This document shows positions 16,073-48,566 of a stretch of DNA of 64,000 nucleotides, piece by piece (within the stretch, counting starts at the first letter, position 1; each line of letters opens with the position of its first letter). The notes under the pieces are model-generated. The model was not told where the DNA came from, ran no database searches, and worked only from the letters and a program-made list of their open reading frames with translations. The stretch lies in the IMG/VR virus record IMGVR_UViG_3300029690_000340; one strand, 5' to 3'. A program made the position numbers and the translations under genes. This DNA is from a virus.

Positions 16073-16093
16073 CGCGAGGAAAGGAGGCTCTGC

Positions 16094-17419
16094 ATGACTA
16101 CCCATATCTGGAAAAAGATGCTTTCCTCACTGCTGTGCGGTATTCTCTCGGTATCCTGCATGACAGCTACCGTATTTGCCATTGACGGCAAGAGCGTAAG
16201 CGGCGCATTTGGTGAGCACTGGGATGAAGTCCAGGAATCGTATGAAACCTCCTTCGGCTGGGACTATAATAAGCATCTTGAGAAGGACTGGACGGATGAC
16301 GACACCGGAAACGAATATGAGCGGCAAGCAGGGTATCAGGAAGAGTGGTATCGGAATAACATTCTGACCACAAAACAATACCTTGGTGTTTCGACTGGAG
16401 AAGGCGGAAATGGCAGCAATATCGTTGAAGTCGCGCTCAGTCAACTTGGCTTGGATGATTCCATTGAAATCCCGCCGAACTCGAATTTTGTCAAATACAA
16501 TGACTGGTACTATGGCAGCCACCGTTCCGGACAGTGGTGCGCGGCGTTCGTCTCTTGGTGCGCAAATGAATGTGACCTTTTGGAAAATACAATTCCAAAG
16601 GATGCCAGTTGTTCAAGTATGTTTAAGAAACTCACGGGCAGATACGGCTACGCATACTATCCTGTTCGAAGCACAACACCGTTCGGTGGTTCTTATACAC
16701 CTGTTCCGGGCGACCTTATGTTTTTTTCAGAGACTGGTAATCTAAGGTTGGCTAAGCCTTTTAATCACATCGGCATCATTGTTGAGGTGGATGAAACCGG
16801 ATGGTACACGGTCGAGGGCAACACAACTGGCGGCGGGCAAATCCCAGGCGGCGGCGTTGCAAAAAACCACTATACAGCATCGACCACATACAAAGCCGCG
16901 AAGAACGGCTATATCGTTCATGTAGAATATCCTGAAACAGCATTTTCGGAAATCCAGGGCGGCACCAACAAGGAGAAGGTGTTCTCCTTCCTGACAGAAG
17001 AACTTGGCCTGAACAATGCTGCCGCCTGCGGGGTTATGGCAAATATCCAAAATGAATCTGGTTTTAACCCGGCAAGACATGAGGATAAAAACGCATACGG
17101 AGATGGACTGGGAGAAGGTTATGGTTTATGCCAGTGGTCCTATAGCAGAAAGACATCACTACTGAGCTTTTTGCAGGAAAACGGTTTTGCTGAGGACTCT
17201 ATAGACGGACAACTCTGGTTTTTCAAGACCGAAATCGAATCTTCGGAGCGTACAGCGTGGAATGCCATCAAGGACCTGCCTAATACATCAGATGGCGCGT
17301 ATGAGGCCGGACGCCTGTGGTGCCTGAAATTTGAGCGTCCGCGTGATGGTGTCGGAGATTCTGTGGAGCGAGGCAATCTCGCGCAAAATACATACTGGCC
17401 CGCTTACGGCGGACGGTGA
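16094..17419 (+). CDS. cell-wall hydrolase: CHAP domain + lysozyme-like (VirB1-like) domain
   Basis: Signal peptide. CHAP catalytic Cys context SGQWCAAFVSWCANECD. C-terminal NAAACGVMANIQNESGFNP...GLCQWSY lysozyme-like/lytic transglycosylase region. Typical of Gram-positive conjugation loci. Confidence 0.7.
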   Translation: MTTHIWKKMLSSLLCGILSVSCMTATVFAIDGKSVSGAFGEHWDEVQESYETSFGWDYNKHLEKDWTDDDTGNEYERQAGYQEEWYRNNILTTKQYLGVSTGEGGNGSNIVEVALSQLGLDDSIEIPPNSNFVKYNDWYYGSHRSGQWCAAFVSWCANECDLLENTIPKDASCSSMFKKLTGRYGYAYYPVRSTTPFGGSYTPVPGDLMFFSETGNLRLAKPFNHIGIIVEVDETGWYTVEGNTTGGGQIPGGGVAKNHYTASTTYKAAKNGYIVHVEYPETAFSEIQGGTNKEKVFSFLTEELGLNNAAACGVMANIQNESGFNPARHEDKNAYGDGLGEGYGLCQWSYSRKTSLLSFLQENGFAEDSIDGQLWFFKTEIESSERTAWNAIKDLPNTSDGAYEAGRLWCLKFERPRDGVGDSVERGNLAQNTYWPAYGGR

Positions 17420-17433
17420 GGAGGTAAGTGACC

Positions 17434-19704
17434 ATGACTCAACAACAGCAGAATCTGATTCGCAGACTGAAAATCGCATTGTTGGTAGTCCTCATATTGT
17501 CTATTTACATGACGGGGATTGTTCTCAGCATTTCCGTAGTGAAGTCCACGCTCAACCCGTTCCGTTTGATTCGCCTCTTCGGTGAGTACGGCTTTCCGTG
17601 GAAAATGTTCCTTGGCTGTTTTCTTTTCATCGGTATTGCCATTTCCATCCTGATGGCATACTCCGTTTCCGAGGAAGCGGGTGTCGATAAGATGGGTCGC
17701 TTGTTTTCCATGGCGATTGGCCGCAAGACATACGGAGAAGCGCACTTTGAGGACCCGAAAGAATACGAGGATGTCGCTATCATCCAGCATGAGCCGCAGG
17801 CAGTTGGCACTATCCTCGGACAACTGGACGAGACAGGCCGCTACCCCATTGTATTCCGAGAGGATAAGATGAACCGTGCGAACCGGCACATTGCCGTCAT
17901 CGGCGCGTCAGGCTGCGGCAAGACCTATACCTTTACAAAGAACTACGCTTTCCAGGCGGTAAAGCGCCGGGAGTCCCTGATATTCACAGACCCGGACGGC
18001 GGCCTTTACGCAGATATGGCAAGGTACTTCATGGACAACGGATATGTCGTGCGACGCTTCGACCTGCACAATATCAGCAAAAGTGACGGCTGGAATTGCA
18101 TGGACTCGCTTTTGGCAGACCCAGAACGTATTGGCGAAAATGCAGAGATTTTTGCAAATGTTATCATTTCCAACGCCGGAGGGAGTGCCGGCATTTACGA
18201 GAGCGGACCGAAATCTCTTCTGAAGGCGCTCCTTCTGCGCGTTGCGCTTGGACATGACTACCCGCCTGAGAAGAAAAATATCAACTCTGTCCATCAGATG
18301 CTCAAGAACCCAGGGGGAGAGGCTTATCTGGATATGATGTTTGACCCGGACAGTCTTACGCCGGAGGAACAGCCCTGCGTCGGGCCGTACATGACCTTCA
18401 AGCAGTCCTCACCGAATCTTCGCGGCAACCTCATTGTGAACCTTGCGGCAGATATCGGGGTTATGGATGACGCAAAAGTGCGGACGCTGCTCTCCACCCC
18501 CTGCATTGATATGTCTCTTCCCGGAAAGCAGCCTTGCGCTTATTTCTGCATTTTCCCTGACAGCCATGACACCTACAAATTCATCGTGTCCCTGTTCTTC
18601 TCCATGCTGTTCATTACCCTTATCAACGACGCGGATAATAACGGCAAGGACCGTATGCTCGATGTCCCTGTTGATTTCCTGCTGGACGAGTTTCCGTCCA
18701 TCGGTACGATTCCGGATTTTGACCGAAAAATGGCGACGATTCGAAAGCGTGCCATGAATGTCTGCATGATATTTCAAGACATCACCCAGCTTCAGAACAA
18801 CTACCAGACAACCTGGGCAACCCTCCTGAGTAACTGCTCGACATTAGTGAGCCTTGGTATCAACGACGAATTTACCGCGAAAATGGTGTCCTCTCGTATC
18901 GGTGATACGACCGTAAACGTCCGGACCAACCAGCATAAGGCGATGGAAACGCTGCTGAAAAACAACGAGTTTCTTCACAACTGGTCATCTGGTGAAGGTA
19001 AGCGTGCGCTGGTGGGGCTGGATGAAGCATTTAAGATGGGGAAGAACGACAGCATCATTATCTTTCAGGGGCATAACCCTATACTTGCGAAAAAATACCC
19101 CCACACGCTCCATACGGACGCCAAGAAACTCAGCAATTTTGATTTCCGTGAAATCCCACCCATCACCGACAAAGAGGGGCGAGAGCTATTTTATCAGCGG
19201 CAGCAAAATATTCTGGACGCTTTCAATATCACGCATCCGCACATCAACGAGGTAGACCGTTCGTACACAGGGATGTGCAACTCGATACCAGTACAAAGCA
19301 TTTGGGAAGAGAGCAAGGATGCCGTTATTGCATACGTCAAGGAGATAAATAAGAAAGGCTCCGATGACGATGTGATAGAAGTCGAGGACTGCGGTGATGA
19401 ATACATCGAGGTAGACGAGACAGACGAGGAGCAGGCGGTCGAACCTTCAGTACCACCTGCGCAACAGGAGCCGGTACTGTCCGTTGACGCAAAGCCGAAC
19501 GCAGATATCGACTTGGAAAGCACCGAGGACGAAACAGAACCGCAGCAGGAAGTCACAAGCAAGCCGAAGGAAGCCCCCACGCCTGCCGAAGCGAAAGAGG
19601 TAGCGCAGGGTGGGAAGCGCCCAGCACTGCCGAAGCGCAGCTTCAGTTCTACGCCGACTACAGGGAAACCGAGAATGTCGGGGAAGCTGCCGGGGATGCG
19701 GTAA
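17434..19704 (+). CDS. type IV coupling protein (VirD4/TraG/TcpA-like ATPase)
   Basis: N-terminal TM helices. Walker A HIAVIGASGCGKTYTF. Walker B region VDFLLDEFPSIG. Acidic C-terminal tail. ATG at 17434 after GAGGAGG. Confidence 0.75.
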   Translation: MTQQQQNLIRRLKIALLVVLILSIYMTGIVLSISVVKSTLNPFRLIRLFGEYGFPWKMFLGCFLFIGIAISILMAYSVSEEAGVDKMGRLFSMAIGRKTYGEAHFEDPKEYEDVAIIQHEPQAVGTILGQLDETGRYPIVFREDKMNRANRHIAVIGASGCGKTYTFTKNYAFQAVKRRESLIFTDPDGGLYADMARYFMDNGYVVRRFDLHNISKSDGWNCMDSLLADPERIGENAEIFANVIISNAGGSAGIYESGPKSLLKALLLRVALGHDYPPEKKNINSVHQMLKNPGGEAYLDMMFDPDSLTPEEQPCVGPYMTFKQSSPNLRGNLIVNLAADIGVMDDAKVRTLLSTPCIDMSLPGKQPCAYFCIFPDSHDTYKFIVSLFFSMLFITLINDADNNGKDRMLDVPVDFLLDEFPSIGTIPDFDRKMATIRKRAMNVCMIFQDITQLQNNYQTTWATLLSNCSTLVSLGINDEFTAKMVSSRIGDTTVNVRTNQHKAMETLLKNNEFLHNWSSGEGKRALVGLDEAFKMGKNDSIIIFQGHNPILAKKYPHTLHTDAKKLSNFDFREIPPITDKEGRELFYQRQQNILDAFNITHPHINEVDRSYTGMCNSIPVQSIWEESKDAVIAYVKEINKKGSDDDVIEVEDCGDEYIEVDETDEEQAVEPSVPPAQQEPVLSVDAKPNADIDLESTEDETEPQQEVTSKPKEAPTPAEAKEVAQGGKRPALPKRSFSSTPTTGKPRMSGKLPGMR

Positions 19705-19721
19705 TATCAGCACAGGCCACA

Positions 19722-19754
19722 GGCACGCCAGCATTTCGTTGGCGTGCCTTTTTG
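19722..19754 (+). terminator. rho-independent terminator
   Basis: GGCACGCCAGCATTTCGTTGGCGTGCC hairpin + TTTTTGC. Confidence 0.6.
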
Positions 19755-19791
19755 CTTGCGCCGTTGTATGTAATGTCACTTCATTCGATAC

Positions 19792-19820
19792 TTTACAAAT
19801 AAGATAAAGTGTGGTATAAT
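19792..19820 (+). promoter_or_regulatory. conserved sigma-70-type promoter (TTTACA-N17-TGGTATAAT, extended -10)
   Basis: Member of the five-copy promoter family ...AAG(C/A)TAA(T/A)GTGTGGTATAAT. Drives the signal peptidase operon. Confidence 0.55.
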
Positions 19821-19846
19821 ATAAGCGTAAAGAAGAGGTGATTCCA

Positions 19847-20368
19847 ATGAAAGAACAAAATCTCACCAACCGCACTGTATGGAGCCGTGAAGTGCTCAAG
19901 GGTTCCCTGGAGGGGCTTATTATCGCTCTTCTTTTGTTCCGAATCCTGTTCAATGTTGTTGTGGTGTCCGGCCCTTCTATGGTGCCGACGCTTGCGGACA
20001 ATAGTGTGATTCTGACAAATCACATTAAGCCGAATCTGGAGTTTGAGAGCATTGTTGTTTGCAATTCGAGCGGTCTGGATGAAAATATCGTTAAGCGTAT
20101 TATTGGTTGCCCCGGTGATACCATCGACATTGATTTCGAACAGGGGGTGGTCTATCGCAACGGAATCGCGCTGAGTGAACCGTACACGAATACCCCGACC
20201 AACATCGAATATGACGATGGCATATCGTTTCCTCTCACCGTGGAGGAGGACTATTACTTTGTGCTGGGGGATAATCGAAACAACAGCCTTGACAGCCGCA
20301 GCTCCATTGTCGGATTGATTCCGAGAACGGACATCGAGTCGTCCTATGTACTCACTATCATCGGGTAA
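19847..20368 (+). CDS. signal peptidase I (S26 family)
   Basis: SGPSMVPTL (catalytic Ser box), NIVKRIIGCPGD, LGDNRNNSLDSRS boxes. RBS AGAGGTG. Confidence 0.75.
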   Translation: MKEQNLTNRTVWSREVLKGSLEGLIIALLLFRILFNVVVVSGPSMVPTLADNSVILTNHIKPNLEFESIVVCNSSGLDENIVKRIIGCPGDTIDIDFEQGVVYRNGIALSEPYTNTPTNIEYDDGISFPLTVEEDYYFVLGDNRNNSLDSRSSIVGLIPRTDIESSYVLTIIG

Positions 20369-20390
20369 TCATTGAAAAACAAGAAGAAGG

Positions 20391-20423
20391 CCTATGAGCG
20401 GGATTCCGTTCATAGGTCTTTTA
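20391..20423 (+). terminator. rho-independent terminator
   Basis: CCTATGAGCGGGATTCCGTTCATAGG hairpin + TCTTTTACTTTT. Confidence 0.55.
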
Positions 20424-20525
20424 CTTTTGAAAATCCGCGAAAAAATTGACTTTTGAATGAAAGGTTGTAATAATAAAAGCGTAGGGCATTAAGATGCCCA
20501 AAATAACGCAAAGGAGGCAATAGCA

Positions 20526-21779
20526 ATGGTCAAAAAAGATGGAGCAGCTGCTTCAATCGAGGAAAACGCTGAAGTGCAGGCTCCCGCTGAGGAACAGAGC
20601 AACGTCCAATCCTCCACCGCAGAGAGCGTTGAAACGCAGGCCCCCAATGAGGAGGACGCAGAGATGCAGGCACTCTTTGAAGGGCTTGATGGAAACGAAC
20701 CTGAGCAGTCCGGCGCGGAGGAAACCGCTCCCAAAGGGAAGCCTACCCGTGCTGATGTACTGAGGGAGGCAAGACGGCGGAGAGCGGAAAGAAGTGAGTC
20801 TGTCCGTGCTTATCAGGAGTTTCTTATCGGGCTTTCTTCGTTGACGGTCGCAGCCAAAAACCACAGCATCGTAAACGGTCTCGTCTCTCATATTGAGCAG
20901 CGAAACGATGTGGATTCGGAAGTTCCCTGTGTCATGATTATCGCGCTCGTAGAGGGCCGCTACAAGGTTTCCATTCCCTTTGACGAGTTCTATCAGAAGA
21001 ATCCCATTGATATGGCGACGGTAAATATGGAAACTAAGGCCGGTCGTGAAGAGTACGTCAACCGCTGCGCTACGATGGCGGCAAAGTTGTATTCCCTGAA
21101 TGTGCCGATGGTGATTACGACTATCCAGGTCGATGAAAGCACCGATGCTGAAGCCGGAGTTCCGGCTTATGTCATTGTCGCGTCCCGTAAGGCTGCGCTC
21201 GACATTATTGAGGAGGCAAATTACGGAGACCGACCTAACGGTGATGGCCCGCGCATTCAGGAAGGCGATTTTGTTCGTGCTCAGATTACCTCTGTGGCAC
21301 GCGACAGCATTGCCGTTGTGGTTGGCGGAGTCGATACGCGGGTGTCGCTCCACGCCCTGACTTTCGAGTACCTTGTTGACGCGAGAACCAAATACAAGGT
21401 GGGGCAGGAAATTATGGTTCAGGTAGAGCAAATCATCAAAGAGAAAGATGGCCACCACATCGTCGAGGTGAACTGTAAGCAGCCTGAGTTGGAGCGTGCG
21501 AAGCAAATGCGCAGTGCTCTTCCAATCGGCTCCATCGTGTTTGGCATCGTATCTTCCGTGGCAGCGAGTAAGAAGCAGCCTGGGAATATCAATGTGTTGG
21601 CGTATATCAAGATGTACGATTTACCCGTACTCGTGAACAATATGCCTGCGAAATTCCTTGGGAGCGAGCCTCCGCGTGGTTCGACCGTCCGGCTGAAGGT
21701 TCTTAATTATTTGGACAACGGGATGATTCTGTGCCGGTGCATCGGCACCCAAGGCCCCATGAATTTCCCCAACGCCTGA
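20526..21779 (+). CDS. hypothetical protein with acidic N-terminus
   Basis: RBS AAGGAGG. N-terminal ~80 aa is E/A/Q-rich. Remainder has no recognisable family. Confidence 0.4.
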   Translation: MVKKDGAAASIEENAEVQAPAEEQSNVQSSTAESVETQAPNEEDAEMQALFEGLDGNEPEQSGAEETAPKGKPTRADVLREARRRRAERSESVRAYQEFLIGLSSLTVAAKNHSIVNGLVSHIEQRNDVDSEVPCVMIIALVEGRYKVSIPFDEFYQKNPIDMATVNMETKAGREEYVNRCATMAAKLYSLNVPMVITTIQVDESTDAEAGVPAYVIVASRKAALDIIEEANYGDRPNGDGPRIQEGDFVRAQITSVARDSIAVVVGGVDTRVSLHALTFEYLVDARTKYKVGQEIMVQVEQIIKEKDGHHIVEVNCKQPELERAKQMRSALPIGSIVFGIVSSVAASKKQPGNINVLAYIKMYDLPVLVNNMPAKFLGSEPPRGSTVRLKVLNYLDNGMILCRCIGTQGPMNFPNA

Positions 21780-21792
21780 TGACCGTTTCGGT

Positions 21793-21830
21793 GCGGCTCC
21801 CCTCCACTCGGAGTCGGAGCCGCGCTTTTC
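21793..21830 (+). terminator. rho-independent terminator
   Basis: GCGGCTCCCCTCCACTCGGAGTCGGAGCCGC hairpin + TTTTCTTT. Confidence 0.55.
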
Positions 21831-21866
21831 TTTGAAACGTTTTTTTGAAAGGAGGCTTGCATTCTC

Positions 21867-22739
21867 GTGAGCGATAAGCGTAACGAGGACTTGAAACAGT
21901 TCATTATTCCAGAAAATTTTATGGGAGAATCCAGACTATTTCAAGGGCAGTTAAAGACACGCAATGTAGTGGAAGGAGGATTGATTTCGGGGGTATTGGC
22001 AATTTTCTTTTGGAATGTCATTTCAGTTCCTATCACCACAAAAATATCCCTGGTCATATTTTTTTCCGCACCACTTGGTCTGCTTGGCCTGTTTGGCGTG
22101 AACGGCGACCCGCTGTCCACCTTTATCAAGATTTTCTTTTCATGGCGAAGAAAACGGGGGCTGATGTTGTTCAACAACGAAGCACGAGCGTTGAAGGAAG
22201 CCCCCATTAAGCTCATGATGTCGGAAGATGGCATGGGCGACAAACTCAGGGATTTTCTGGATGCCAGAAAGGAAAAGAAGGCCGCTGAACGGGCGAGTCA
22301 GGAGATGGTCGAAGGCAAAACGTTCGAGTTTGCACCTGACAGTTCACTTGAGGGCAACTACATTGATGAAGATGACGATGGCGATGAAACGCCGAGCGGC
22401 AGCGCCGGCAATCTCCATAAAACAAAGCGCAACCAATCCTTCGTTGAAGTGGAAGTCCTGGAAGAGGATGACGATACCTCGTTGGAACTGGACGGATTTA
22501 CGGAGGATATCGACAGCAGCACCGTTGAGGAATCTGGCCTGCCGTTGCCGGATTTGGGCGGGGCCGACGATGTGGAATTGAGTAACGATGACACTAACGA
22601 GATGCCTGACGCCGAGGAACCTGACGATAATCCCCCTGCGTGTGAAACGCAGCTGGAGTCTGCGGCAGAGGATAATTCTGACGCCGAAGGCGACGCGGAT
22701 GGGGAAGATGAAGAACTTGACGAGGAGGATTTGTTTTAA
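21867..22739 (+). CDS. PrgI-family (VirB3-like) T4SS membrane protein with highly acidic C-terminal tail
   Basis: GTG start after GAAAGGAGG. Two TM helices (LISGVLAIFFWNVISVPI / LVIFFSAPLGLLGLFGV) as in PrgI-family proteins. Its stop overlaps the VirB4 start, as is typical. Confidence 0.5.
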   Translation: MSDKRNEDLKQFIIPENFMGESRLFQGQLKTRNVVEGGLISGVLAIFFWNVISVPITTKISLVIFFSAPLGLLGLFGVNGDPLSTFIKIFFSWRRKRGLMLFNNEARALKEAPIKLMMSEDGMGDKLRDFLDARKEKKAAERASQEMVEGKTFEFAPDSSLEGNYIDEDDDGDETPSGSAGNLHKTKRNQSFVEVEVLEEDDDTSLELDGFTEDIDSSTVEESGLPLPDLGGADDVELSNDDTNEMPDAEEPDDNPPACETQLESAAEDNSDAEGDADGEDEELDEEDLF

Positions 22740-25231
22740 TGTCCAGAAAACTGAAACAGGTGATAAGCTGCCAATCTTTCTCGCCCATAAGCGATGTTCG
22801 TGACGGCATCATCGTCACGAAAGACGGGAAATTTGTGAAGTTGATGGAGTTCTCTCCCATTAACTACGGCTTACGGTCGAACGAGGATAAGAACATGATT
22901 ACGGCACAATATGCGGCCGCAATCCGCTCGTTTCCAAGCGTTGTCCAAATCAAAGTTCTGTCCAATCGCGCAAATGTCGAACACTATATTTCCGGCATGG
23001 TGGAAAGTGTGCGCCATGAAAAGAATGAAGGAACCCGTGAACTGATGCGGGAGCAAATCGACATGATGTCAGAATTTGGCACATCGCAAGGCGTATCCCG
23101 TCGCTTCTTTCTCGCATTCCAGTACGAGGAAGAAGAGGGATTCGCACATCGTTCACCATCATGGAATGAAATCAGAAGCACCATTACGAGACAGGAGGAC
23201 GCCATCAGAAGCAACCTTCGGGCCTGCGGCAACATTATGATTTCAAGGCCTCACGATGACGTCTATGTGCTTTCCACGCTTTACGATATCATGTCCAGAG
23301 CACAGAGCGCGAACCACCCGTTTGACGAGAGAATGGCGGATGTTGTTGCCCGATATACGGCGGCAAACATCGACTTCACGCGAGATAGTGCGGCGCATCT
23401 TCCTGTCAATGATGTGCTTGCTCCGTACTGCATTGATACGGAGTCAAGTCCCCGATATATCATCGTGGATGGCATCTACTATATGTGCTGCTATCTTCCG
23501 AGCAATGCCTATCCTGTGCGCGTTCTTGGCGGCTGGATGCAGCTGCTGGCAGGACTGGGGGAGGGGATTGATGTGGATGTTTGGCTTCAGAAGATTTCAC
23601 CGGAGAAGATTCAAACTGCACTGCATCATGGCCTGCGGTTCAATGCAATGCGCTTCCGCAACACAGAAACCACCAGTAGCGACTACGATGATGTGAAGGC
23701 TGCGGTGGACGCAGGATACTATCTGAAAAGCTCTCTCGCGGCCGGCGACGAATTTGCCTATATGTCTACAATGCTCACTATTACAGGTGAAAGCGAGCGA
23801 GAAATTGACTACAAATTCAAGGAAATCCGGCGCATTTTCATTGAGAGAGAATTGACTCTTAAACCTTGTACTTTCCAGCAAGCAGAAGCGTTTCGCTCCA
23901 CCATTCCCGTATGTGAGTATGACAAAAACCTATTCCGTAAGAGCCGCAGAAATATTCTGTGTTCCGATTTTGCGTCCACCTATATGTTCACATCTTCCGA
24001 GCTGTGCGATAAGGACGGCGTGATGCTGGGCGTGGATGATGTGTTCAAATCACCGGTTCTGGTCAACTTCTTCGACCGCCAGCAATATATCAATGCCAAC
24101 ATCAATATTGTCGGCTCCTCTGGCTCCGGTAAGACCTTCACCACGCAGGTTCTGGCATTGAGAATGCGGGAGAAGGGGGTTCAAACCTTCATTATCGCGC
24201 CGCTGAAAGGCAAGGAGTTCCTGCCGCTTTGTGAGAAGGTTGGGGGCAGTTTCATTGAAATCAAACCCGGTTCCGGACAGAATATCAATATCATGGAGAT
24301 ACGCAAGAAGGAAGAGGGCAACGTCTACGATGACGATGGTGCGTTGGTCACTTCCGGCTCGATTTTGGCACAGAAAATCCAGCAGCTTCTCATTTTCTTT
24401 AAGCTGATTATCCCGGACATGACGCCAGAAGAGGTGCAGTATGTGGATGACGCGCTGCTGAAAACTTACGGCAATTTCGGAATTACCCATAAGAACAAGA
24501 GCCTGTTGGACCCCAACGACAAGAAGAAATACCGCAAAATGCCTATCCTTTCGGACGTATATTCCGAGCTGGAAAAGATGGGCGCACCAGCAAATCGTTT
24601 GTGCCGTTTGCTGACGCGATACACCACAGGTTCTGCATCTTCGTTCAACGCGCAAACCAATGTGAACCTTAACAACAAGTTCGTAGTGCTGGATGTTTCC
24701 GATGCGCAGAAAGACTTCCTTCCTGTGGCTATGTTCCTTGCATTGGATTATGTTTGGGATAAATGCAAGGAAAATCGGAACGTCAACAAGTGTGTTTTCA
24801 TTGACGAGACTTGGCGCTTGGTCTGCTCCGATGCACCTATCGAAGCCGCCAATTTCGTGGTCGAAATCTTCCGTACTATCCGAGGCTTCGGCGGAAGCGC
24901 CGTCGCTGCCACGCAGAATATCGCAGACTTCTTCTCTGCGGGAATTGGCACCGCCATCATCGGAAACGCCAAAATCAAAATGATTTTGCGCAGCGAAAAA
25001 GAGGAAGCAAACGCGATTGCGGATGCGATTGGTCTGACCGACGAGGAACTCAAGCGTGTAAAAACCATGGACCGTGGAACCTGTCTCCTGACCGCAAATG
25101 AGAACCACATTTTCATCAATGTTAAGGCGACGGATACTGAAGAATACCTGATAACGACTGACCCCAAAGCAAGAGCCGCTGCGAAGCGCCGAATTGAGCA
25201 GAAGCGTACTTGCGCTGCCTTCAGGCGCTGA
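22739..25231 (+). CDS. VirB4-family conjugation ATPase
   Basis: 830 aa. Walker A NINIVGSSGSGKTFTTQ. Walker B VFIDETWRL. Conserved C-terminal ATPase region. Translationally coupled to the PrgI-like gene (TAATG). Confidence 0.8.
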   Translation: MSRKLKQVISCQSFSPISDVRDGIIVTKDGKFVKLMEFSPINYGLRSNEDKNMITAQYAAAIRSFPSVVQIKVLSNRANVEHYISGMVESVRHEKNEGTRELMREQIDMMSEFGTSQGVSRRFFLAFQYEEEEGFAHRSPSWNEIRSTITRQEDAIRSNLRACGNIMISRPHDDVYVLSTLYDIMSRAQSANHPFDERMADVVARYTAANIDFTRDSAAHLPVNDVLAPYCIDTESSPRYIIVDGIYYMCCYLPSNAYPVRVLGGWMQLLAGLGEGIDVDVWLQKISPEKIQTALHHGLRFNAMRFRNTETTSSDYDDVKAAVDAGYYLKSSLAAGDEFAYMSTMLTITGESEREIDYKFKEIRRIFIERELTLKPCTFQQAEAFRSTIPVCEYDKNLFRKSRRNILCSDFASTYMFTSSELCDKDGVMLGVDDVFKSPVLVNFFDRQQYINANINIVGSSGSGKTFTTQVLALRMREKGVQTFIIAPLKGKEFLPLCEKVGGSFIEIKPGSGQNINIMEIRKKEEGNVYDDDGALVTSGSILAQKIQQLLIFFKLIIPDMTPEEVQYVDDALLKTYGNFGITHKNKSLLDPNDKKKYRKMPILSDVYSELEKMGAPANRLCRLLTRYTTGSASSFNAQTNVNLNNKFVVLDVSDAQKDFLPVAMFLALDYVWDKCKENRNVNKCVFIDETWRLVCSDAPIEAANFVVEIFRTIRGFGGSAVAATQNIADFFSAGIGTAIIGNAKIKMILRSEKEEANAIADAIGLTDEELKRVKTMDRGTCLLTANENHIFINVKATDTEEYLITTDPKARAAAKRRIEQKRTCAAFRR

Positions 25232-40374: not shown

Positions 40375-40382
40375 TCTGCACT

Positions 40383-40714
40383 CCCGCCGAATGGCGGGCG
40401 GGTGAGCCGGAAACTCCGACCCAGCCTCCTGTCATTTGGTGTGGCTTATGACCCGCAAGGGAAGTAAGCCTCGTCAATAAGCCTCAGCCGCAAGGCTACG
40501 ATATGCCGGAATCCATAGGCACCGGCGGATGCTCCACAAGTCCGCCGCTCTGCGGGTGCGTATTAAACATCTCTGAGGGGAAGGAGAAGTGTGCGCACCA
40601 TTAAACCCGGTATATCCTTGGCGATGTGGACCACAGTAACGCCGCGTGAGCGGTAAGTGCTGATTTACCAAATCTTTGGTTTTCTCAAGTAGGGGAATTC
40701 TCGTCTTTTTAATC
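40383..40714 (+). ncRNA. tracrRNA/omegaRNA-like structured element, orphan copy (about 90% identical to 41745..42076)
   Basis: No ORF. GC-rich hairpins (CCCGCCGAATGGCGGG, CGGCGGATGCTCCACAAGTCCGCCG). Anti-repeat CCTCCTGTCATTTGGTGTGGC at 40425-40445 is complementary to downstream repeats. Ends with CCAAATCTTTGG hairpin + TTTTCT. Confidence 0.4.
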
Positions 40715-40797
40715 GTTGATGTGCCACAGCAAATGACAGGGAGTATCATCTGGCCCGCAGGATTGACGTCCCACACCAAATGACAGGAATCGGTAAA
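40715..40797 (+). repeat. two degenerate 36-nt array-type repeats separated by an 11-nt spacer
   Basis: GTTGATGTGCCACAGCAAATGACAGGGAGTATCATC / ATTGACGTCCCACACCAAATGACAGGAATCGGTAAA. Share the (G/A)TTGA(C/T)GT...CAAATGACAGG core with the array at 42097. Confidence 0.4.
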
Positions 40798-40817: not shown

Positions 40818-41420
40818 ATGACTTTTTTCAGTTTTGCTCTGGAATTAGGGCGGCTCATGGTGCCGCAGCTCGCGGTACTCATTGTGCTATGTGCATTGTG
40901 CGATTTCGCCGTGGGCAAGCTCAATGCGCCGAGACCGCCGGTGCTTGCGGTTCTGTGGCTATTCCTACTCATTGAAACACTTAACGTCGGCAGCCGCGTG
41001 ACGCTGTTCTTCCAGAACTGGGAGTTCCAGATTCCCAAAGTCTCTCTTGGCATCCAGCTTGTGCTGCTGGCAGTCCTGGTGGGCTTGCCGGCTGCGAAGT
41101 ATTTCGCGGGGAAGAAGTTCGCCAACTGCGGTGCTGTGAGTAAGGCGCTCGCTTTATTCTTTCATACCGTTCTTTCCCTCGCAGCGGCGATTGTACTGCT
41201 GGCAAGCCTGTATTCTATAGTTATGGCACGAGCGGATTTCCCTGCGGATACTGCCAATGCAGTCTGCTTCGTTGTGGTTGTATTTGCGCTGTACCAGCCC
41301 TTACTTATGCACTTTGGTGGGAACAGGCTGGACGACATCCTGTCGCTCATTCGGCAGGCCAATCGCAACGCGGTGTCTGTCCATCAGAATGATACGAACC
41401 ATGTCGGCGCAGGTAAGTAA
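40818..41420 (+). CDS. hypothetical polytopic membrane protein
   Basis: RBS AGGAGGAATG. Five to six TM helices. Confidence 0.4.
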   Translation: MTFFSFALELGRLMVPQLAVLIVLCALCDFAVGKLNAPRPPVLAVLWLFLLIETLNVGSRVTLFFQNWEFQIPKVSLGIQLVLLAVLVGLPAAKYFAGKKFANCGAVSKALALFFHTVLSLAAAIVLLASLYSIVMARADFPADTANAVCFVVVVFALYQPLLMHFGGNRLDDILSLIRQANRNAVSVHQNDTNHVGAGK

Positions 41421-41739
41421 ACACGCGAGGAAGCGTACAAAACAGCGTGCTGGCCTCGGCAAAAGAGCAGCCGTGCGCAATGCACAGAAAGCCTTTGACC
41501 TTGGCGTGAAGCACTCGGAGACCAATGGACGCTTAAACAAGTATCTCACCGCCATCTACTTCACTAACAAAACCATCAACAACCTGCGCATCTATCACCG
41601 GCACGTCTACCTGTTTGCCGGAGATGTCCTTGTCACCGTGCTCAACCTGCCGAACAATTTGTGGCCGCAGGCTGATGCCTGCGAGAAGCGCAAGCGGGCA
41701 AGTTTGGAACGCCCTGTCTGTCAGGATAGTATTTCTTAG
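41401..41739 (+). CDS. possible small basic protein (112 aa), weakly supported
   Basis: In-frame ATG within listed ORF 41257..41739. K/R-rich N-terminus (KHARKRTKQRAGLGKRAAVR). No RBS. Confidence 0.2.
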   Translation: MSAQVSKHARKRTKQRAGLGKRAAVRNAQKAFDLGVKHSETNGRLNKYLTAIYFTNKTINNLRIYHRHVYLFAGDVLVTVLNLPNNLWPQADACEKRKRASLERPVCQDSIS

Positions 41740-41744
41740 TTTTT

Positions 41745-42076
41745 CCCGCCGAATGGCGGGTGGGTGCGCCGGAAGCTCCGGCTCAGCCTCCTGTCATTTG
41801 GTGTGGCTTATGACCCGCAAGGAGAGTAAGCCTCGTCAATAAGCCTCAGCCGCAAGGCTACGATATGCCGGAATACATAGGCACCGGCGGATACTCCACA
41901 AGTCCGCCGCTCTGCGGGTGCGTATTAAACATCTCTGAGGGGAAGGAGAAGTGTGCGTACCATCAAACCCGGTATATCCTTGGCGATGTGGACCACAGTA
42001 ACGCCGCGTGAGCGGTAAGTGCTGATTTACCAATTTTTTGGTTTGCCTAAGTAGGAGAATCTTCGTATTTTTAAGC
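41745..42076 (+). ncRNA. tracrRNA/omegaRNA-like structured element upstream of the array and iscB
   Basis: Anti-repeat CCTCCTGTCATTTGGTGTGGC at 41787-41807 has 12-18 contiguous nt complementary to the ...CCACCAAATGACAGG... portion of each array repeat. Many hairpins. About 90% identical to 40383..40714, with several paired substitutions. Confidence 0.45.
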
Positions 42077-42096: not shown

Positions 42097-42330
42097 GTTG
42101 ACGTACCCCGCCAAATGACAGGTAGCTATACCCAAAGCGACCAGCCGATGCGCCCATTGTAGTTGACGTATCCCACCAAATGACAGGTAGCTATACCAGT
42201 TGAGCATGGCAATGATGGGGATTTGCGAGTTGATGTCCCTAACCAAATGACAGGTAACTATACCCAAATGGCTTGGTTCTCACAAGTTCTTGTGGTTGAC
42301 GTCCCCCACCAAATGACAAGAAGCTGCACC
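42097..42330 (+). CRISPR. CRISPR-like mini-array: four 36-nt repeats, three spacers (29, 31, 30 nt)
   Basis: R1 42097-42132 GTTGACGTACCCCGCCAAATGACAGGTAGCTATACC. R2 42162-42197. R3 42229-42264. R4 42295-42330 (degenerate terminal repeat). Spacers CAAAGCGACCAGCCGATGCGCCCATTGTA / AGTTGAGCATGGCAATGATGGGGATTTGCGA / CAAATGGCTTGGTTCTCACAAGTTCTTGTG. Repeats are 83-94% identical, not perfect. Confidence 0.55.
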
Positions 42331-42352: not shown

Positions 42353-43747
42353 ATGCCAGTATGTGTTTTAAGTGCAAACGGTGAACGGCTGATGCCGACC
42401 GAAAATTACGGCAAAGTGCGCCATCTGCTGAAGGATGGCCGCGCTGTAATTGCGAAGCGGAACCCGTTCACCATCCAGCTGACCTACGAGACCAGTACCT
42501 ATACCCAGCCCATCGAATTGTGCGTCGGCACCGGATATGAGCATATCGGCGTCAGCATTAAGGCAAAGGCAAAAGAGGTCGTATCGCAGCAATATGATTT
42601 GCTCACGAACGAGCGCTCCCGCCATGACGACTGCCGAGCGTACCGCCGGACGCGCAGAAACCGCCTGCGGTATCGGGCTGCACGGTTCAATAACCGTGTA
42701 TCCAGCAAAATGCCCGGTTGGATTGCTCCGTCCCTGGATAACAAGGTGGAGCGGCACCTGGATATTATCTCCCGCTATCTATCTGTCATGCCTGTCAAGG
42801 ATGTCTTTATCAAGGCCGCAACATACGATACACAGCTCCTTGCGGCGCTGGAGGCAGGGGAGCCTGTCCCGCAGGGTAAGGACTATCAGCATGGGCCACA
42901 GTACGGATACGATACACTGCGGGAAGCGGTCTTTGAACGGGACCACTATACCTGTGTGTATTGCAAGAGAGGTCTGAAAGACGGCGCTATCCTTCATGTC
43001 CATCACGCCTACTACTGGAAGGGTCTGCATGGGAACAGCATGAGGGAGCTTGCGACCTGCTGCGAGAAGTGCAACACACCTGCCAATCACAAGGAGGGCG
43101 GGAAGCTGTGGGGCTTCGATAAGCCTCTGCGGAAATATACCGGCGAAGCGTTTATGAATAGCGTGCGCTGGATTCTCTACCAGCGTGCGATGGCTCGCTT
43201 CCAGGGTGCTGCGGAAGTACACATGACCTATGGCGTCATCTCCAAGCGCGTCCGCACCAACCTCGGCCTCCCGTATTCCTGCGCTACGGATGCCTACTGC
43301 ATGGGCGAGCTGCGTCCGGAAGCCAGATGCGAAACAGAGGTCTTCCAGAAATACAGGCGAAACAACAGAGTCCTATCCAAATTCTATGACGCCAAATATT
43401 ACGACACACGGGAAAAGGGAGTTATCCGTTCTGGCAACGAGTTGTCCTCCGGCAGGACGAACCGCAATCATAACCTTGACGGCGAAAATCTGCGCCGGTT
43501 CCGTGGCTGTAAGAAGTCAAAGGGCCGAACCTCGACCAGAAAGCAGAGATATGCCATGCAGCCGGGAGATATCGTGGTCTACGGCAATCGCAAATACGTT
43601 TCCAAGGGCTGCTCCAGCTACGGCAAGGCATTAAGCCTACTCACGGATGGAAAGCCGCTTATGGTCAGCATGAAGAAAATCCAGCTTGTTCGTCATAAGG
43701 GCGGCTGGGTGCGGCTTCCCCATGCAGCAGCCGAGGCAAAAAAATAA
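42353..43747 (+). CDS. iscB: IscB-family RNA-guided nuclease homologue (PLMP domain, split RuvC, arginine-rich bridge helix, HNH, C-terminal TI domain); RuvC catalytic residues apparently substituted
   Basis: N-terminus MPVCVLSANGERLMPTENYGKVRHLLKDGRAVIAKRNPFTIQLTYE matches the PLMP domain. RRTRRNRLRYRAARFNNR bridge helix. HNH CVYCKRG...HVHHAYYWKGLHGNSMRELATCCEKCNTPANHK. Expected RuvC-I D is G59 (LCVGTG vs LGIDPG). RuvC-II E is K154 (VFIKAATYD). RuvC-III motif reads ATDAYC where H.DAY is expected, so the His is Thr and the Asp is retained. Confidence 0.75.
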   Translation: MPVCVLSANGERLMPTENYGKVRHLLKDGRAVIAKRNPFTIQLTYETSTYTQPIELCVGTGYEHIGVSIKAKAKEVVSQQYDLLTNERSRHDDCRAYRRTRRNRLRYRAARFNNRVSSKMPGWIAPSLDNKVERHLDIISRYLSVMPVKDVFIKAATYDTQLLAALEAGEPVPQGKDYQHGPQYGYDTLREAVFERDHYTCVYCKRGLKDGAILHVHHAYYWKGLHGNSMRELATCCEKCNTPANHKEGGKLWGFDKPLRKYTGEAFMNSVRWILYQRAMARFQGAAEVHMTYGVISKRVRTNLGLPYSCATDAYCMGELRPEARCETEVFQKYRRNNRVLSKFYDAKYYDTREKGVIRSGNELSSGRTNRNHNLDGENLRRFRGCKKSKGRTSTRKQRYAMQPGDIVVYGNRKYVSKGCSSYGKALSLLTDGKPLMVSMKKIQLVRHKGGWVRLPHAAAEAKK

Positions 43748-44646: not shown

Positions 44647-44862
44647 ATGGCAAATTACAGAGTTTGTTTTCGGCTGCCCACATTTGTGGTACAGCTGAGC
44701 TTTGAGGCGGCAGAGAGGGATATCTCATACGAGGAAATTGCTGCATCCATCAACAAAGAGAAGGTCGCGGAACTTCTGTGTCTTGACGCACTGGGCTACA
44801 GTGCGGAAGACATAGAAATCATCACCCCGGAAGAGTATGACGAGGAGGTTGGAGCGGAATGA
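44647..44862 (+). CDS. small hypothetical protein (71 aa)
   Basis: RBS AAGGAGGGA. Translationally coupled to the next gene. Confidence 0.3.
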   Translation: MANYRVCFRLPTFVVQLSFEAAERDISYEEIAASINKEKVAELLCLDALGYSAEDIEIITPEEYDEEVGAE

Positions 44863-46352
44863 ACACTGAGGAGCGTTTCCTGCTTCGCTCGTCAGTAGAA
44901 TGGCGAAAGAATTTGATGCAGGATTGCTTGTGTATGCCGTGTGCTGAGTTCTCTGACTCTTTCGACGCAGCTGTAGACGCTGCCATCGCCACATTCCCTG
45001 AGTTGGAGCGGGAAGCTATCTTAAAACGCTACCGCGACGGTCTTACACCAACACAATGCGCAAACGCACTGGAAATTGACATCGGCAAGTTCTACTCTTG
45101 CTTCGACCTCGCCATAAGGAGGCTGCGTCACCCCAAATATGCGGGGGGTATCCTGAAAGAAATGCGCCGGTTTGCAGGCAGCCCTCTCGCCTCTGCTTTG
45201 AAGGAGGCCATTGAGAATGGCAACTGGAAAAAAATCGAGGAGTTGTGCGATTCTGTTCCGTTTCAGTGCCTCAATTTCTCGACTCGCACCAAGAACTGCC
45301 TTATGTTCAGTGGTGCCCAAAGTATCGGCGATGTTGTTCGACTGATAGAGAGCGGCAAACTGAAGAATCTGCGCCAATGCGGGCAGGGGACCCTTCAGAA
45401 TATTATCGACGTACTGGAAAAGGCTCTGCCGTTCCATTTCATCCTTGGAAAGCCAGCTCAATTCTGTCCGGAAACGAGTGATGCCTTCACCCGGAAGGAA
45501 CACACTCGCCAGCTCTCTGCCATGCTGGAGCGATACATCGACCCGCGCAACGACCCACGCATCTACTGGGCGAGAGAGGTCACATTCGACTACTCTACGA
45601 ACCACAAAATCCGCGTGGACTATATGCGCTTTCAGCCGCTCAACAATTCGACCTCCGGCATTGAGAAGGGGGACTTCTACGCCTACGAGGTCAAGTCCTC
45701 TGTGGAGGATTTCAAATCTCCTAACGGGCACAACTTCATCGCGGACTACAACTACTACGTTATGCCCGCAGACGTCTTCGAAGCGGTGAAGGATACTGTG
45801 CCATACGGCGTCGGTGTGCTTTGCCCGGACGGCGGGCATCTGCGATGCGTGAGGAAAGCCGTGAGGAAGGACCGAACCAGACCGGTCAGCGAGATGCTGC
45901 TCATGCTGTGGCGCAGCTCACGAAGAGAGAGATTGTTGGAAGGAGAAACAAAAATGACAAAGAAACAAACGACAGACAAGATTAACAAGCCTGAGTTCGC
46001 CCCGGAGGAGTGGCGGAAGGCGGCCATTATGTACGATACATCCTTTGCCTGGTGTAAAAATCAAATTTCAGCCTGGGGTAAGAATCAAATTTCATTTACA
46101 CCGGGCTTTAACGAGATGTTCGATGAAGCGCTGGACACACTTCCTGAGCGAAACCGCGATATCGTCCAAAAGTATTTTCGTGACAGAATGACGTTTTCGC
46201 AAATCGCCGACCTGCACGGCACCAGCAGAAGCATAGTTCGCCATCTGTGTATCTGGACGGTATGGAGGGTCATGAATTTGATTCTGCTGCGAGAAGGAAG
46301 CAACCAAAATGCTGCGCCACAAACAGGCGGAGGAACTGAAGGTGGGTATTGA
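44859..46352 (+). CDS. multidomain protein: sigma-70 region-4-like HTH / RpoA-CTD-like HhH / PD-(D/E)xK (VRR-NUC-like) / second sigma-70 region-4-like HTH
   Basis: ELEREAILKRYRDGLTPTQCANALEIDIGKF (sigma region 4-like). STRTKNCLMFSGAQSIGDVVRLIESGKLKNLRQCGQGTLQNI (alpha-CTD-like). VDYMRF...DFYAYEVKSS (nuclease-like D...EVK). C-terminal ERNRDIVQKYFRDRMTFSQIADLHGTSRSIVRH. Confidence 0.45.
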   Translation: MNTEERFLLRSSVEWRKNLMQDCLCMPCAEFSDSFDAAVDAAIATFPELEREAILKRYRDGLTPTQCANALEIDIGKFYSCFDLAIRRLRHPKYAGGILKEMRRFAGSPLASALKEAIENGNWKKIEELCDSVPFQCLNFSTRTKNCLMFSGAQSIGDVVRLIESGKLKNLRQCGQGTLQNIIDVLEKALPFHFILGKPAQFCPETSDAFTRKEHTRQLSAMLERYIDPRNDPRIYWAREVTFDYSTNHKIRVDYMRFQPLNNSTSGIEKGDFYAYEVKSSVEDFKSPNGHNFIADYNYYVMPADVFEAVKDTVPYGVGVLCPDGGHLRCVRKAVRKDRTRPVSEMLLMLWRSSRRERLLEGETKMTKKQTTDKINKPEFAPEEWRKAAIMYDTSFAWCKNQISAWGKNQISFTPGFNEMFDEALDTLPERNRDIVQKYFRDRMTFSQIADLHGTSRSIVRHLCIWTVWRVMNLILLREGSNQNAAPQTGGGTEGGY

Positions 46353-47393: not shown

Positions 47394-47422
47394 TTGACAA
47401 ATAAGCTATTGTGTGGTATAAT
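47394..47422 (+). promoter_or_regulatory. conserved promoter (TTGACA-N17-TGGTATAAT)
   Basis: TTGACAAATAAGCTATTGTGTGGTATAAT. Overlaps the listed ORF start at 47394, which is therefore not the real start. Confidence 0.55.
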
Positions 47423-47444
47423 TGCTGCATTCAGTGAAGGGGGG

Positions 47445-48566
47445 GTGGTTGACATCACGAATACCAGTAATTTAGCCGCTGACCGTGCGCTTGCCTATGA
47501 AGCCATTGAAAGGCAGCCTGAAACAGAAGAAATCGCAGCTTCGAATGAACAGGAGGCCGAAGCGAAGCAACCGGGAAATATCGGCGACCATGTGGCGATG
47601 TATCTCAGCCAAATTGGCAGCATCCCCATTATGCCGCAGGTGGAAGCGAATCGCTGCATTGAAAAAGTGCAGAAGGGGAATGCCGCTGCCGAACAGCTCG
47701 AAACGCTGCGGGTGATTGCCGAGGAGAGCGGGAATGCAGTTGACCCCGAAATCAAGAAAGACCTGATGAAGGCCATAGAAGCAGGAAGATGGGCGAAAGA
47801 TAAGGTTGTTGAGGGCAATCTTCGGCTTGTTGTGTCCATCGCAAAGAAATATATAAACTCAGCCGATTCTATGGTGTTCATGGACCTCATTCAGGAGGGC
47901 AACATTGGCCTCATGCGTTCCATCGACTCTTTTGACATTTCGAGGAATGTGAAGTTTTCCACCTACGCAACCTTCTGGATAAGGCAAAACATCACAAGAG
48001 CGCTTGCCACGACGGACCCAGCCATTCGCAAGCCCATCTATGTTGCGGAGGGCAGGCGGAGCGTCAATAATGCAAAAGAACAAATGCAACAAAAAGGCTT
48101 ACCTTGTGATGACCCTTTAGAAATCGCAAAATACATGGAGGGGGATGCGTGGGATTCCCTTTCAAAAAGGGAGCAGCAGAAAAAACTGCGCATCATCCAA
48201 CACTCGCTCCAGTACCGGAAGCCGGACTCGTTGGATGCGCCCGTCAATTCGGACGCCGCAAGCGATTCCAACACACCGCTTTCGGAATTCATCCCAAGCC
48301 ATAACGAGTGGGATAACCCGGAAATTTCAACGTCAGGGAAGGCACTATGGGAAACGATGGACAAAATCCTGCACGATATGCCCGCACGAGACGCCTGTGT
48401 GCTTCGCTTACGATTCGGATTGGAGGATGGTTGTGCTTATACCCTCAAAGAAATCGGGGACGAAATGGACTTAACGCGAGAGCGTGTCCGTCAGGTTACA
48501 GATAAAACACTCGATAAGCTACGCAACGGAAAGGCAGGGAAGATGCTTCAGGACTTTCTTGAATAA
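47445..48566 (+). CDS. sigma-70-family RNA polymerase sigma factor (RpoD/SigA-like group)
   Basis: Region 1.2 DHVAMYLSQIG. Region 2 GNLRLVVSIAKKYINSADSMVFMDLIQEGNIGLMRSIDSFDISRNVKFSTYATFWIRQNITRAL. Region 4 YTLKEIGDEMDLTRERVRQV. Start uncertain (GTG 47445 or nearby). Confidence 0.75.
   Translation: MVDITNTSNLAADRALAYEAIERQPETEEIAASNEQEAEAKQPGNIGDHVAMYLSQIGSIPIMPQVEANRCIEKVQKGNAAAEQLETLRVIAEESGNAVDPEIKKDLMKAIEAGRWAKDKVVEGNLRLVVSIAKKYINSADSMVFMDLIQEGNIGLMRSIDSFDISRNVKFSTYATFWIRQNITRALATTDPAIRKPIYVAEGRRSVNNAKEQMQQKGLPCDDPLEIAKYMEGDAWDSLSKREQQKKLRIIQHSLQYRKPDSLDAPVNSDAASDSNTPLSEFIPSHNEWDNPEISTSGKALWETMDKILHDMPARDACVLRLRFGLEDGCAYTLKEIGDEMDLTRERVRQVTDKTLDKLRNGKAGKMLQDFLE

Follow-up and report, generated by a model that had tools for sequence, protein, structure and literature searches.

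We analysed a 64,000-nucleotide stretch of DNA filed as IMG/VR virus record IMGVR_UViG_3300029690_000340 (the window, by which we mean the whole stretch), in which an open reading frame (ORF) on the + strand at 42353–43747 encodes an IscB protein of 464 amino acids. [quoted passage not shown] Three of the four RuvC catalytic residues of this IscB are replaced, its HNH domain is largely preserved, and spacers of the locus match a gene on another mobile element. The features of the iscB gene that carry the argument are as follows.

42353–43747, + strand: iscB, 464 amino acids, RuvC site predicted inactive and HNH domain retained (Pfam RRXRR, IscB matches in the PDB, AlphaFold2 with Foldseek, and substitution rates)
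42527–42529, + strand: codon of G59, where OgeuIscB has D61, the catalytic Asp of RuvC-I; D in 113 of 120 homologues
42812–42814, + strand: codon of K154, where OgeuIscB has E193, the catalytic Glu of RuvC-II; E in 112 of 120 homologues
42935–43102, + strand: HNH domain, placed by alignments, with C201/C204, H217-H218 (H218 catalytic, codon 43004–43006), C237/C240, N241 (codon 43073–43075), N245 and H246
43280–43291, + strand: RuvC-III motif C310-A-T-D313 (C310 codon 43280–43282), in which the His (OgeuIscB H340) is now Cys; H in 114 of 120 homologues

Sequence and structure searches both identified the ORF as IscB. Pfam RRXRR matched residues 3–181 (7e-41), and chains of IscB led the sequence matches in the PDB, where the entries for OgeuIscB, 7utn and 7xht, scored ~1e-28 (phmmer). 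An AlphaFold2 model computed from an input of 49 sequences (mean predicted local distance difference test score (pLDDT) 82.4, predicted template-modelling (TM) score (pTM) 0.74) gave exclusively IscB structures as its top Foldseek matches (8csz, E = 5e-26; 9liq, TM score 0.59); IsrB and Cas9d/Cas9 stood far down the ranking, the Cas9 matches being weak (TM score 0.25–0.35). At 464 amino acids, the protein is not a large effector with a recognition (REC) lobe, as Cas9 is, and it keeps the PLMP motif as LMPT. Its closest intact relatives are no more than 57–59% identical to it, so that it forms a distinct lineage, shallow yet very successful.

The RuvC catalytic set of OgeuIscB consists of D61, E193, H340 and D343, and H247 is the catalytic residue of its HNH domain (Kato et al., PMC9640706); in the OgeuIscB structure, Mg2+ density lies beside the acidic residues D61 and E193. 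We transferred these positions to the window IscB through three alignments: phmmer against OgeuIscB in the PDB, MAFFT with the 120 closest homologues and OgeuIscB, and an hhalign profile alignment, which matched OgeuIscB at 99.3% probability. The residue equivalences are those of the sequence and profile alignments, the AlphaFold2 model having served for the Foldseek search. All three alignments agreed on the RuvC site. LCVGTG aligned to LGIDPG in RuvC-I, placing G59 at D61; VFIKAATYD aligned to VVLELNRFS in RuvC-II, placing K154 at E193; and PYSCATDAYC aligned to PKDHYLDAYC in RuvC-III, placing C310 at H340 and keeping D343 as D313. The tetrad D-E-H-D is thus represented by G59, K154, C310 and D313, with the last Asp alone kept. 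The original prediction, made from the sequence before any alignment to a structure, had assigned the RuvC-I Asp to Gly59 and the RuvC-II Glu to Lys154; its codon coordinates were exact, and the profile alignment that it had proposed as a check upheld both equivalences. It had also read the RuvC-III His as Thr. The loss of the His was correctly seen, but T312 is the wrong residue, since the H-x-x-D motif puts the His at C310.

Such a combination is not chance variation within the family, since D, E and H occupy the three positions in 99%, 98% and 100%, respectively, of 113 relatives outside the query clade. The possibility that RuvC remains active through unconventional residues, leaving the protein a double-strand cutter, was considered in the same alignment. 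D313 is retained, and E55 and D159 lie close to the RuvC motifs; however, relatives with a complete catalytic set conserve E55 and D159 just as strongly, so the two residues are not compensatory, and no acidic residue had been gained near the RuvC site at any conserved column. The alignments thus showed neither acids at the true RuvC-I and RuvC-II positions nor compensating carboxylates at conserved columns. Moreover, single alanine substitutions at catalytic positions are standard for inactivation: E193A was used to block cleavage by OgeuIscB (PMC9640706), and D61A occurs in IscB base-editor papers. A double-strand cutter with an unconventional RuvC site is, in our estimation, extremely unlikely. 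Because three of the four catalytic residues are lost, no compensating acid is present and single substitutions serve for inactivation, the triple change, as judged from the alignments, must abolish RuvC activity. With its RuvC active site destroyed in this way (D→G, E→K, H→C), the window IscB is predicted to be unable to cut the non-target strand or to make a double-strand break. The view of this protein as naturally RuvC-dead, and not a double-strand cutter, which the original prediction put forward, accordingly found support in the loss of three catalytic residues, both acidic ones (D61 and E193) included.

We then compared the window IscB with its relatives over all family-conserved columns, defined as those at least 90% conserved (n = 138). 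It deviates at 11 of these, and nine of the 11 deviations fall in RuvC-I, -II or -III (D59G, E154K, G156A, F158Y, I275L, T297S, K308Y, H310C and N312T). The other two are K88R, a conservative change in the bridge helix, and H241N in the HNH domain; there are none in the PLMP region and none in the wedge (WED)/target-adjacent motif (TAM)-interaction region. The relaxation is thus limited to the active site of RuvC. In the HNH domain, 33 of 34 positions conserved across the family are kept, among them H217, H218 (equivalent to OgeuIscB H247), N245, H246 and the four zinc-binding Cys residues. Its sole change, H241N, lies just after the second CxxC, at a position that is His in 98% of relatives. 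Of 104 full-length sequences that represent clusters at 50% identity, four are IscBs that have Asn there and keep every other catalytic residue, so the substitution is tolerated in presumably active enzymes, and Asn is also the natural residue at the equivalent position of Cas9. On these alignments, the HNH domain is probable but not certain to be intact; the earlier description of it as intact stands for H217, H218, N245, H246 and the zinc cysteines and fails at position 241. A singleton relative, P0059 (L012:303–2312), combines RuvC changes D→S and E→G with H241N and has two tandem HEARO ωRNAs upstream (303–570 and 642–908). We considered it as a second independent dead lineage and set it aside as not strong evidence, this singleton being known from a contig of 2.6 kb.

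The gene is maintained by selection. Between the window allele and those of contigs L001, L009 and L010 we counted 19–20 synonymous and 7–9 non-synonymous differences, giving ratios of non-synonymous to synonymous rates (dN/dS) of 0.11–0.14. Each of the 18 copies that we inspected has G59, K154 and N241, and each of the 17 that extend to the codon of C310 has that residue too. The exact window protein is indexed in 1585 blocks of an assembly collection, from which the contigs that we read came from human-gut metagenomes and were as long as hundreds of kilobases. As for residence in a mobile element of IS200/IS605 type, gene order around iscB was identical at all six places shown, and no transposase was called near the gene (transposon ends were not searched for). 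The constant gene order at six places and the lack of a called transposase nearby suggest that iscB is immobilised in its element. These data bear on whether the gene is simply a decaying, non-functional remnant of an insertion sequence. Sporadic RuvC-mutated singletons among IscBs (P0059, P0183, P0187 and P0289) and a stop codon in one copy of the window gene (L025) speak for decay, but dN/dS is ~0.12, every one of the 15 gene-spanning copies except L025 has an intact ORF, prevalence is very high with fixed gene order, the PLMP and WED/TAM-interaction positions are fully conserved and those of HNH at 33 of 34, and the arrays described below are dynamic and have real protospacers. We conclude that iscB is under purifying selection and not decaying, and regard a non-functional remnant as very unlikely. 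Other strains of the same backbone also hold OMEGA genes: an ordinary OgeuIscB-like IscB with intact D/E/H/D is inserted in a ProQ_C-like gene of one strain (L004:1004–2485), and at the edge of a second strain there is a TnpB (L006:1–299). Active OMEGA elements are hopping within this backbone.

The RNA features upstream of iscB are the following.

40382–40681, + strand: tracr-like split ωRNA, copy 1 (tracr, trans-activating CRISPR RNA), with anti-repeat at 40427–40444, RF02033 match at 100.8 bits and direct repeat D1
40715–40797, + strand: mini-array 1, two repeats (at 40715 and 40762) with an 11-nucleotide filler between them (repeat search)
40818–41739, + strand: two ORFs between the RNA modules, conserved in all strains examined, encoding a 200-residue membrane-like protein and an 88-residue basic protein (41473–41739)
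41744–42043, + strand: tracr-like split ωRNA, copy 2, with anti-repeat at 41789–41806, HEARO scaffold at 41835–41998 (91.8 bits) and inverted repeats I3, I7, I8 and I11
42097–42330, + strand: mini-array 2, four 36-nucleotide repeats (at 42097, 42162, 42229 and 42295) and three spacers (repeat search)

Matches to HEARO, the Rfam family of the IscB ωRNA (RF02033, gathering score 83), were found on the + strand at 40417–40636 (100.8 bits) and 41835–41998 (91.8 bits), within a 300-nucleotide duplication whose copies (40382–40681 and 41744–42043) are 96% identical. After each ωRNA copy come 36-nucleotide direct repeats of the form GTTGACGT-CCCCCACCAAATGACAGG-TAGCTATACC, and the 5′ ends of the scaffolds bear a perfect 18-nucleotide anti-repeat of the CCTGTCATTTGGTGTGG type. 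In a co-fold of repeat and scaffold (−47.6 kcal/mol), GTTGACG of the repeat pairs with CGTCAAT of the scaffold and CCACCAAATGACAGG of the repeat with the anti-repeat, so that the repeats supply the 5′ strands that the split scaffold is missing. The intact relative P0006 has the equivalent three-way junction in cis, in a single ωRNA with no array. Since repeat–anti-repeat pairing rebuilds in trans the junction that P0006 forms in cis, the ancestral ωRNA has been split in its first hairpin into a CRISPR RNA (crRNA), made of a 30-nucleotide spacer followed by the repeat, and a tracr-like scaffold. A hairpin, CCCGCCGAATGGCGGG, stands ahead of each tracr copy (40384–40399 and 41746–41761), is identical at 15 of 16 positions to a repeat variant of L010, and resembles a remnant of the 5′ strand that the ancestral ωRNA had in cis. 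The first ωRNA copy and mini-array 1 (40382–40797) lie in the 5′ leader of the 200-residue membrane-like ORF (40818–41420); neither this ORF nor that of the 88-residue basic protein had a Pfam match.

Array 2, which ends 22 nucleotides before the iscB ATG, has spacers of 29–31 nucleotides at 42133–42161, 42198–42228 and 42265–42294. Spacer content differs among strains: array 1 of strain L003 holds two further 30-nucleotide spacers, other array-2 spacers occur in L001, L009, L010, L014 and L025–L027, and L010 has ~10 repeats. With at least 13 distinct spacers across related contigs and contents that vary from strain to strain, we conclude that the arrays are live and dynamic.

Two of these spacers have identified targets. 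In one metagenome scan, the spacer at 42133–42161 matched eight contigs at 28 of 29 positions, the lone mismatch being TAM-distal; the same scan returned four more copies of the array. A spacer of array 1 in L003 matched the same contigs at 27–29 of 30 positions, on the same strand and at a site 1 nucleotide away; a second match like this would arise by chance in a contig of 10 kb with a probability on the order of 1e-9. The 3′ flanks of the two protospacers, ACAA and GCAA, share the form N-C-A-A (ACAATTCG and GCAAAGCA), whereas the array repeat begins with GTTG. With NCAA at both sites and GTTG in the array, 3′ NCAA is a candidate TAM and a candidate means of telling self from target. Both protospacers fall at codons ~379–398 of a gene of the FtsK/SpoIIIE family, and at both of them the crRNA is predicted to pair with the coding (non-template) strand. 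This FtsK_SpoIIIE gene lies directly upstream of a Rep_OBD-helicase gene, near a tyrosine integrase and beside the chromosomal ychF, and homologues of its product carry Oscillospiraceae names such as Dysosmobacter and Flavonifractor. From this gene content, the target is a small integrative mobilisable or conjugative element, a rival of the window element. The two protospacers (L013:3372–3431; also in L016–L024) span the motif GASAGCFAIISIAEAS of the FtsK-like ATPase, which in our judgement is probably a conserved ATPase motif; a single spacer could then act on many variants. Differences among variants of the target amount to one to three positions and may represent escape.

Searches elsewhere returned no further targets. 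Exact scans of IMG/VR with six spacers matched only arrays of the same element, scans of GTDB genomes with two spacers found no target, and a BLAST search of 11 concatenated spacers against phages and plasmids gave nothing significant. Within the 64-kb window, no spacer had a match with up to seven mismatches over its full length or up to four in its 3′ 20 nucleotides. We had considered self-targeting or regulation as a role and rejected it, there being no spacer match inside the window. The known targets lie inside a foreign gene and not, as for TldR-like regulators, in promoters of the element's own genome.

These targets also bear on whether the locus is an anti-CRISPR decoy, in which a crippled effector and its tracr RNA would soak up crRNAs that belong to an IscB or type II system of the host. 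Such a role has been proposed for a phage-encoded RuvC-inactive Cas9 (PMC10910872), and two tracr copies on one element would suit it. However, the phage Cas9 comes without arrays, whereas the window locus has variable arrays of its own with spacers matching a rival element; in IMG/VR the repeat occurs solely beside this dead iscB, and we found no host system that is active and has the repeat. We consider a decoy quite unlikely.

The locus is carried, as its genes show, by a conjugative element rather than a phage. All genes of the window are on the + strand, and a conjugation module at 14747–25231 comprises a CHAP and lysozyme hydrolase, VirD4/TraG and a VirB4-like ATPase:

16094–17419, + strand: CHAP-lysozyme hydrolase (Pfam)
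17428–19704, + strand: VirD4/TraG coupling protein (Pfam, 1.7e-49)
22739–25231, + strand: VirB4-like ATPase, TraG P-loop (Pfam, 1.9e-24)

UvrD, UDG, flotillin, NERD and sigma-like genes are also present on the element. A phage origin was considered because of weak PHROGs terminase and tail matches and was rejected, the proteins concerned being the VirB4-like ATPase, VirD4 and a beta-lactamase/SLH protein according to Pfam. Related pieces of this conjugative element are filed as viral in IMG/VR. INPHARED and PLSDB, searched by megablast with the 24 kb that surround the locus, returned no match, so the element has no near relative in either. Downstream of iscB, a 497-residue ORF at 44859–46352 joins an RNA polymerase alpha-CTD-like (C-terminal domain) part to sigma-70 region 4, and is represented in L001–L007 by two genes (349–374 and 132 amino acids); a full sigma factor follows at 47394–48566. 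The position of this sigma factor near a dead RNA-guided protein is noteworthy, as sigma factors are reportedly partnered with dead Cas12f.

Taking these observations together, we think it fairly probable that a conjugative element carries, in the window IscB, a domesticated and CRISPR-associated protein that serves as an RNA-guided weapon against rival mobile elements and does not make double-strand breaks. The conserved positions kept in the PLMP, bridge-helix and WED/TAM-interaction regions are those that hold the guide RNA and read the TAM in IscB structures. Guides from the arrays would direct IscB to the FtsK/SpoIIIE-type gene of the rival integrative element, upstream of the rival rep, where an R-loop would form on the coding strand of the target in the ftsK–rep operon. 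HNH would most likely nick the R-loop (target) strand, and the bound complex would act as a roadblock that, together with the nick, would hinder transcription, replication or transfer of the rival. The rival would thereby be impaired without breakage of the host chromosome in which it is integrated. On this reading, loss of RuvC would itself be adaptive, because a plasmid-borne double-strand cutter directed at a chromosomally integrated target would kill its own host. The role in plasmid competition suggested in the original prediction finds direct support in the conjugative nature of the element and in the two spacers that match the FtsK-like gene of the rival.

A fully cleavage-dead binder, acting in the manner of CRISPR interference (CRISPRi), Cas12m or type IV systems, is the alternative closest to this reading. 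Here, H241N would have disabled HNH, and IscB would block RNA polymerase or replication at the ftsK–rep operon. The substitution affects a position conserved at 98% and is shared by the RuvC-mutated P0059. Both protospacers are oriented for crRNA pairing with the non-template strand, which is the effective orientation for a dCas9 roadblock. Nuclease-deficient, plasmid-borne Cas12m and type IV systems also act by binding (PMC11656645). Conversely, 33 of 34 HNH positions, including His218, were kept while the RuvC motifs gained nine changes, and Asn241 occurs in the four otherwise canonical IscBs noted above, as it does in Cas9. For these reasons we weighted HNH nicking somewhat above pure binding, as what the alignments make most likely; a pure binder is possible, with the balance of probability against it. 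A more specific proposal, to which we give a similarly tentative standing, is that the window IscB could be a target-strand nickase acting by HNH alone, the first natural one in the IscB/Cas9 lineage that works as a CRISPR system, with programmable nicking, in place of breakage or binding only, that would disable rivals replicating or transferring as single strands, leave the host chromosome unharmed, and depend on spacers acquired in trans.

Several observations weigh against an RNA-guided weapon of this kind. HNH activity is a prediction from sequence, with H241N at a likely metal-ligand position, which is how we take position 241; P0059, the only other RuvC-mutated close relative, likewise has Asn there, and the domain scores 15.8 bits with Pfam HNH, short of the threshold of 21.4 bits, which further qualifies the claim that the domain is intact. 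A target was identified for two of ~13 spacers, the matched sites have one to three mismatches, one L003 mismatch lies 4 nucleotides from the TAM, and the candidate TAM rests on two sites. The other two window spacers had no target in IMG/VR, INPHARED or PLSDB, and the 42265–42294 spacer had none in GTDB genomes either. We looked for a promoter for the tracr RNA and did not find one, and no Cas1 or Cas2 Pfam family was present among the genes called within ±10 kb (L002–L007), the rest of the window having been partly scanned. Finally, the L025 copy has a nonsense codon at position 11 (GAA→TAA; L025:281–313), which is an occasional loss or else a sequencing error.

CRISPR-associated IscBs are known and have evolved several times (PMC10691335, PMC10734277); DelIscB, for example, is a CRISPR-associated IscB with an active nuclease (PMC12660989). 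As far as the cited accounts of the DelIscB type go (Altae-Tran 2021, as cited in PMC10691335 and PMC12660989), the window locus shares with it a compact IscB of ~450 amino acids, a non-coding RNA upstream of the ORF in which repeats, spacers and an anti-repeat are joined to an ωRNA-like scaffold, and a CRISPR link that arose independently of Cas9. DelIscB is described there as an active double-strand nuclease, whereas the window IscB has lost three of four RuvC residues; unlike DelIscB in these accounts, the window locus has two tracr-plus-array modules, a conjugative carrier and targets in a rival mobile element. An IscB with an inactivated RuvC and an active HNH, called a putative nickase, has been described in loci that combine Cas12, OMEGA-IscB and a helix-turn-helix (HTH) protein (PMC10910872). 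Its predicted state, RuvC dead and HNH retained, is that of the window IscB, and both are known from sequence. In those loci the partners of IscB are an inactivated Cas12 and the HTH protein, whereas the window IscB has its own CRISPR arrays, and no Cas12 or HTH partner was called within ±10 kb of it. The present case is interpretable because of its locus context of two split ωRNAs and variable mini-arrays, on which the original prediction had not drawn. RuvC-inactive IscB and Cas9 are thus already in the literature, and dead TnpB (TldR) and Cas12m are established; our literature search found no description of a RuvC-dead, array-associated IscB on a conjugative element with identified targets.

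Among other systems, IsrB, a natural OMEGA nickase (PMC10734277), would share with the window IscB, if its HNH nicks, the property of being an RNA-guided single-strand nickase of the same lineage. IsrB has no HNH domain and its RuvC nicks the non-target strand; the window IscB would be its mirror image, with HNH only and the target strand. TldRs (PMC10705468) are likewise domesticated OMEGA effectors with a dead RuvC, kept by selection and encoded beside their guide RNAs, but they derive from TnpB, lack HNH and target promoters of their own host, whereas the targets of the window locus lie inside a gene of a foreign element. With type II CRISPR–Cas systems the locus has in common an array and a tracrRNA with a perfect 18-nucleotide anti-repeat, 36-nucleotide repeats and 29–31-nucleotide spacers, and its ωRNA is seen in a split state, crRNA apart from tracrRNA, with two arrays. 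Should HNH be active, a natural target-strand nickase of 464 amino acids would have a practical interest where base or prime editors need to be compact. There is a functional parallel with type IV-A and type V-M (Cas12m) systems (PMC11656645; bioRxiv 10.1101/2023.06.23.546257), which are also carried on plasmids or conjugative elements with no adaptation genes seen nearby, direct spacers against other mobile elements and their transfer and replication genes, and interfere without destroying the target. Their effector lineages are unrelated to the IscB/Cas9 branch to which the window protein belongs, and the window protein keeps HNH, so that nicking may be possible. The locus would extend nuclease-deficient CRISPR warfare between plasmids, as known from type IV and Cas12m, to the IscB/Cas9 branch, and suggests a rationale for giving up double-strand cutting where targets are integrated in the host chromosome; since it is very common in the gut, its target gene is identified and a candidate TAM is at hand, the question can be tested directly.

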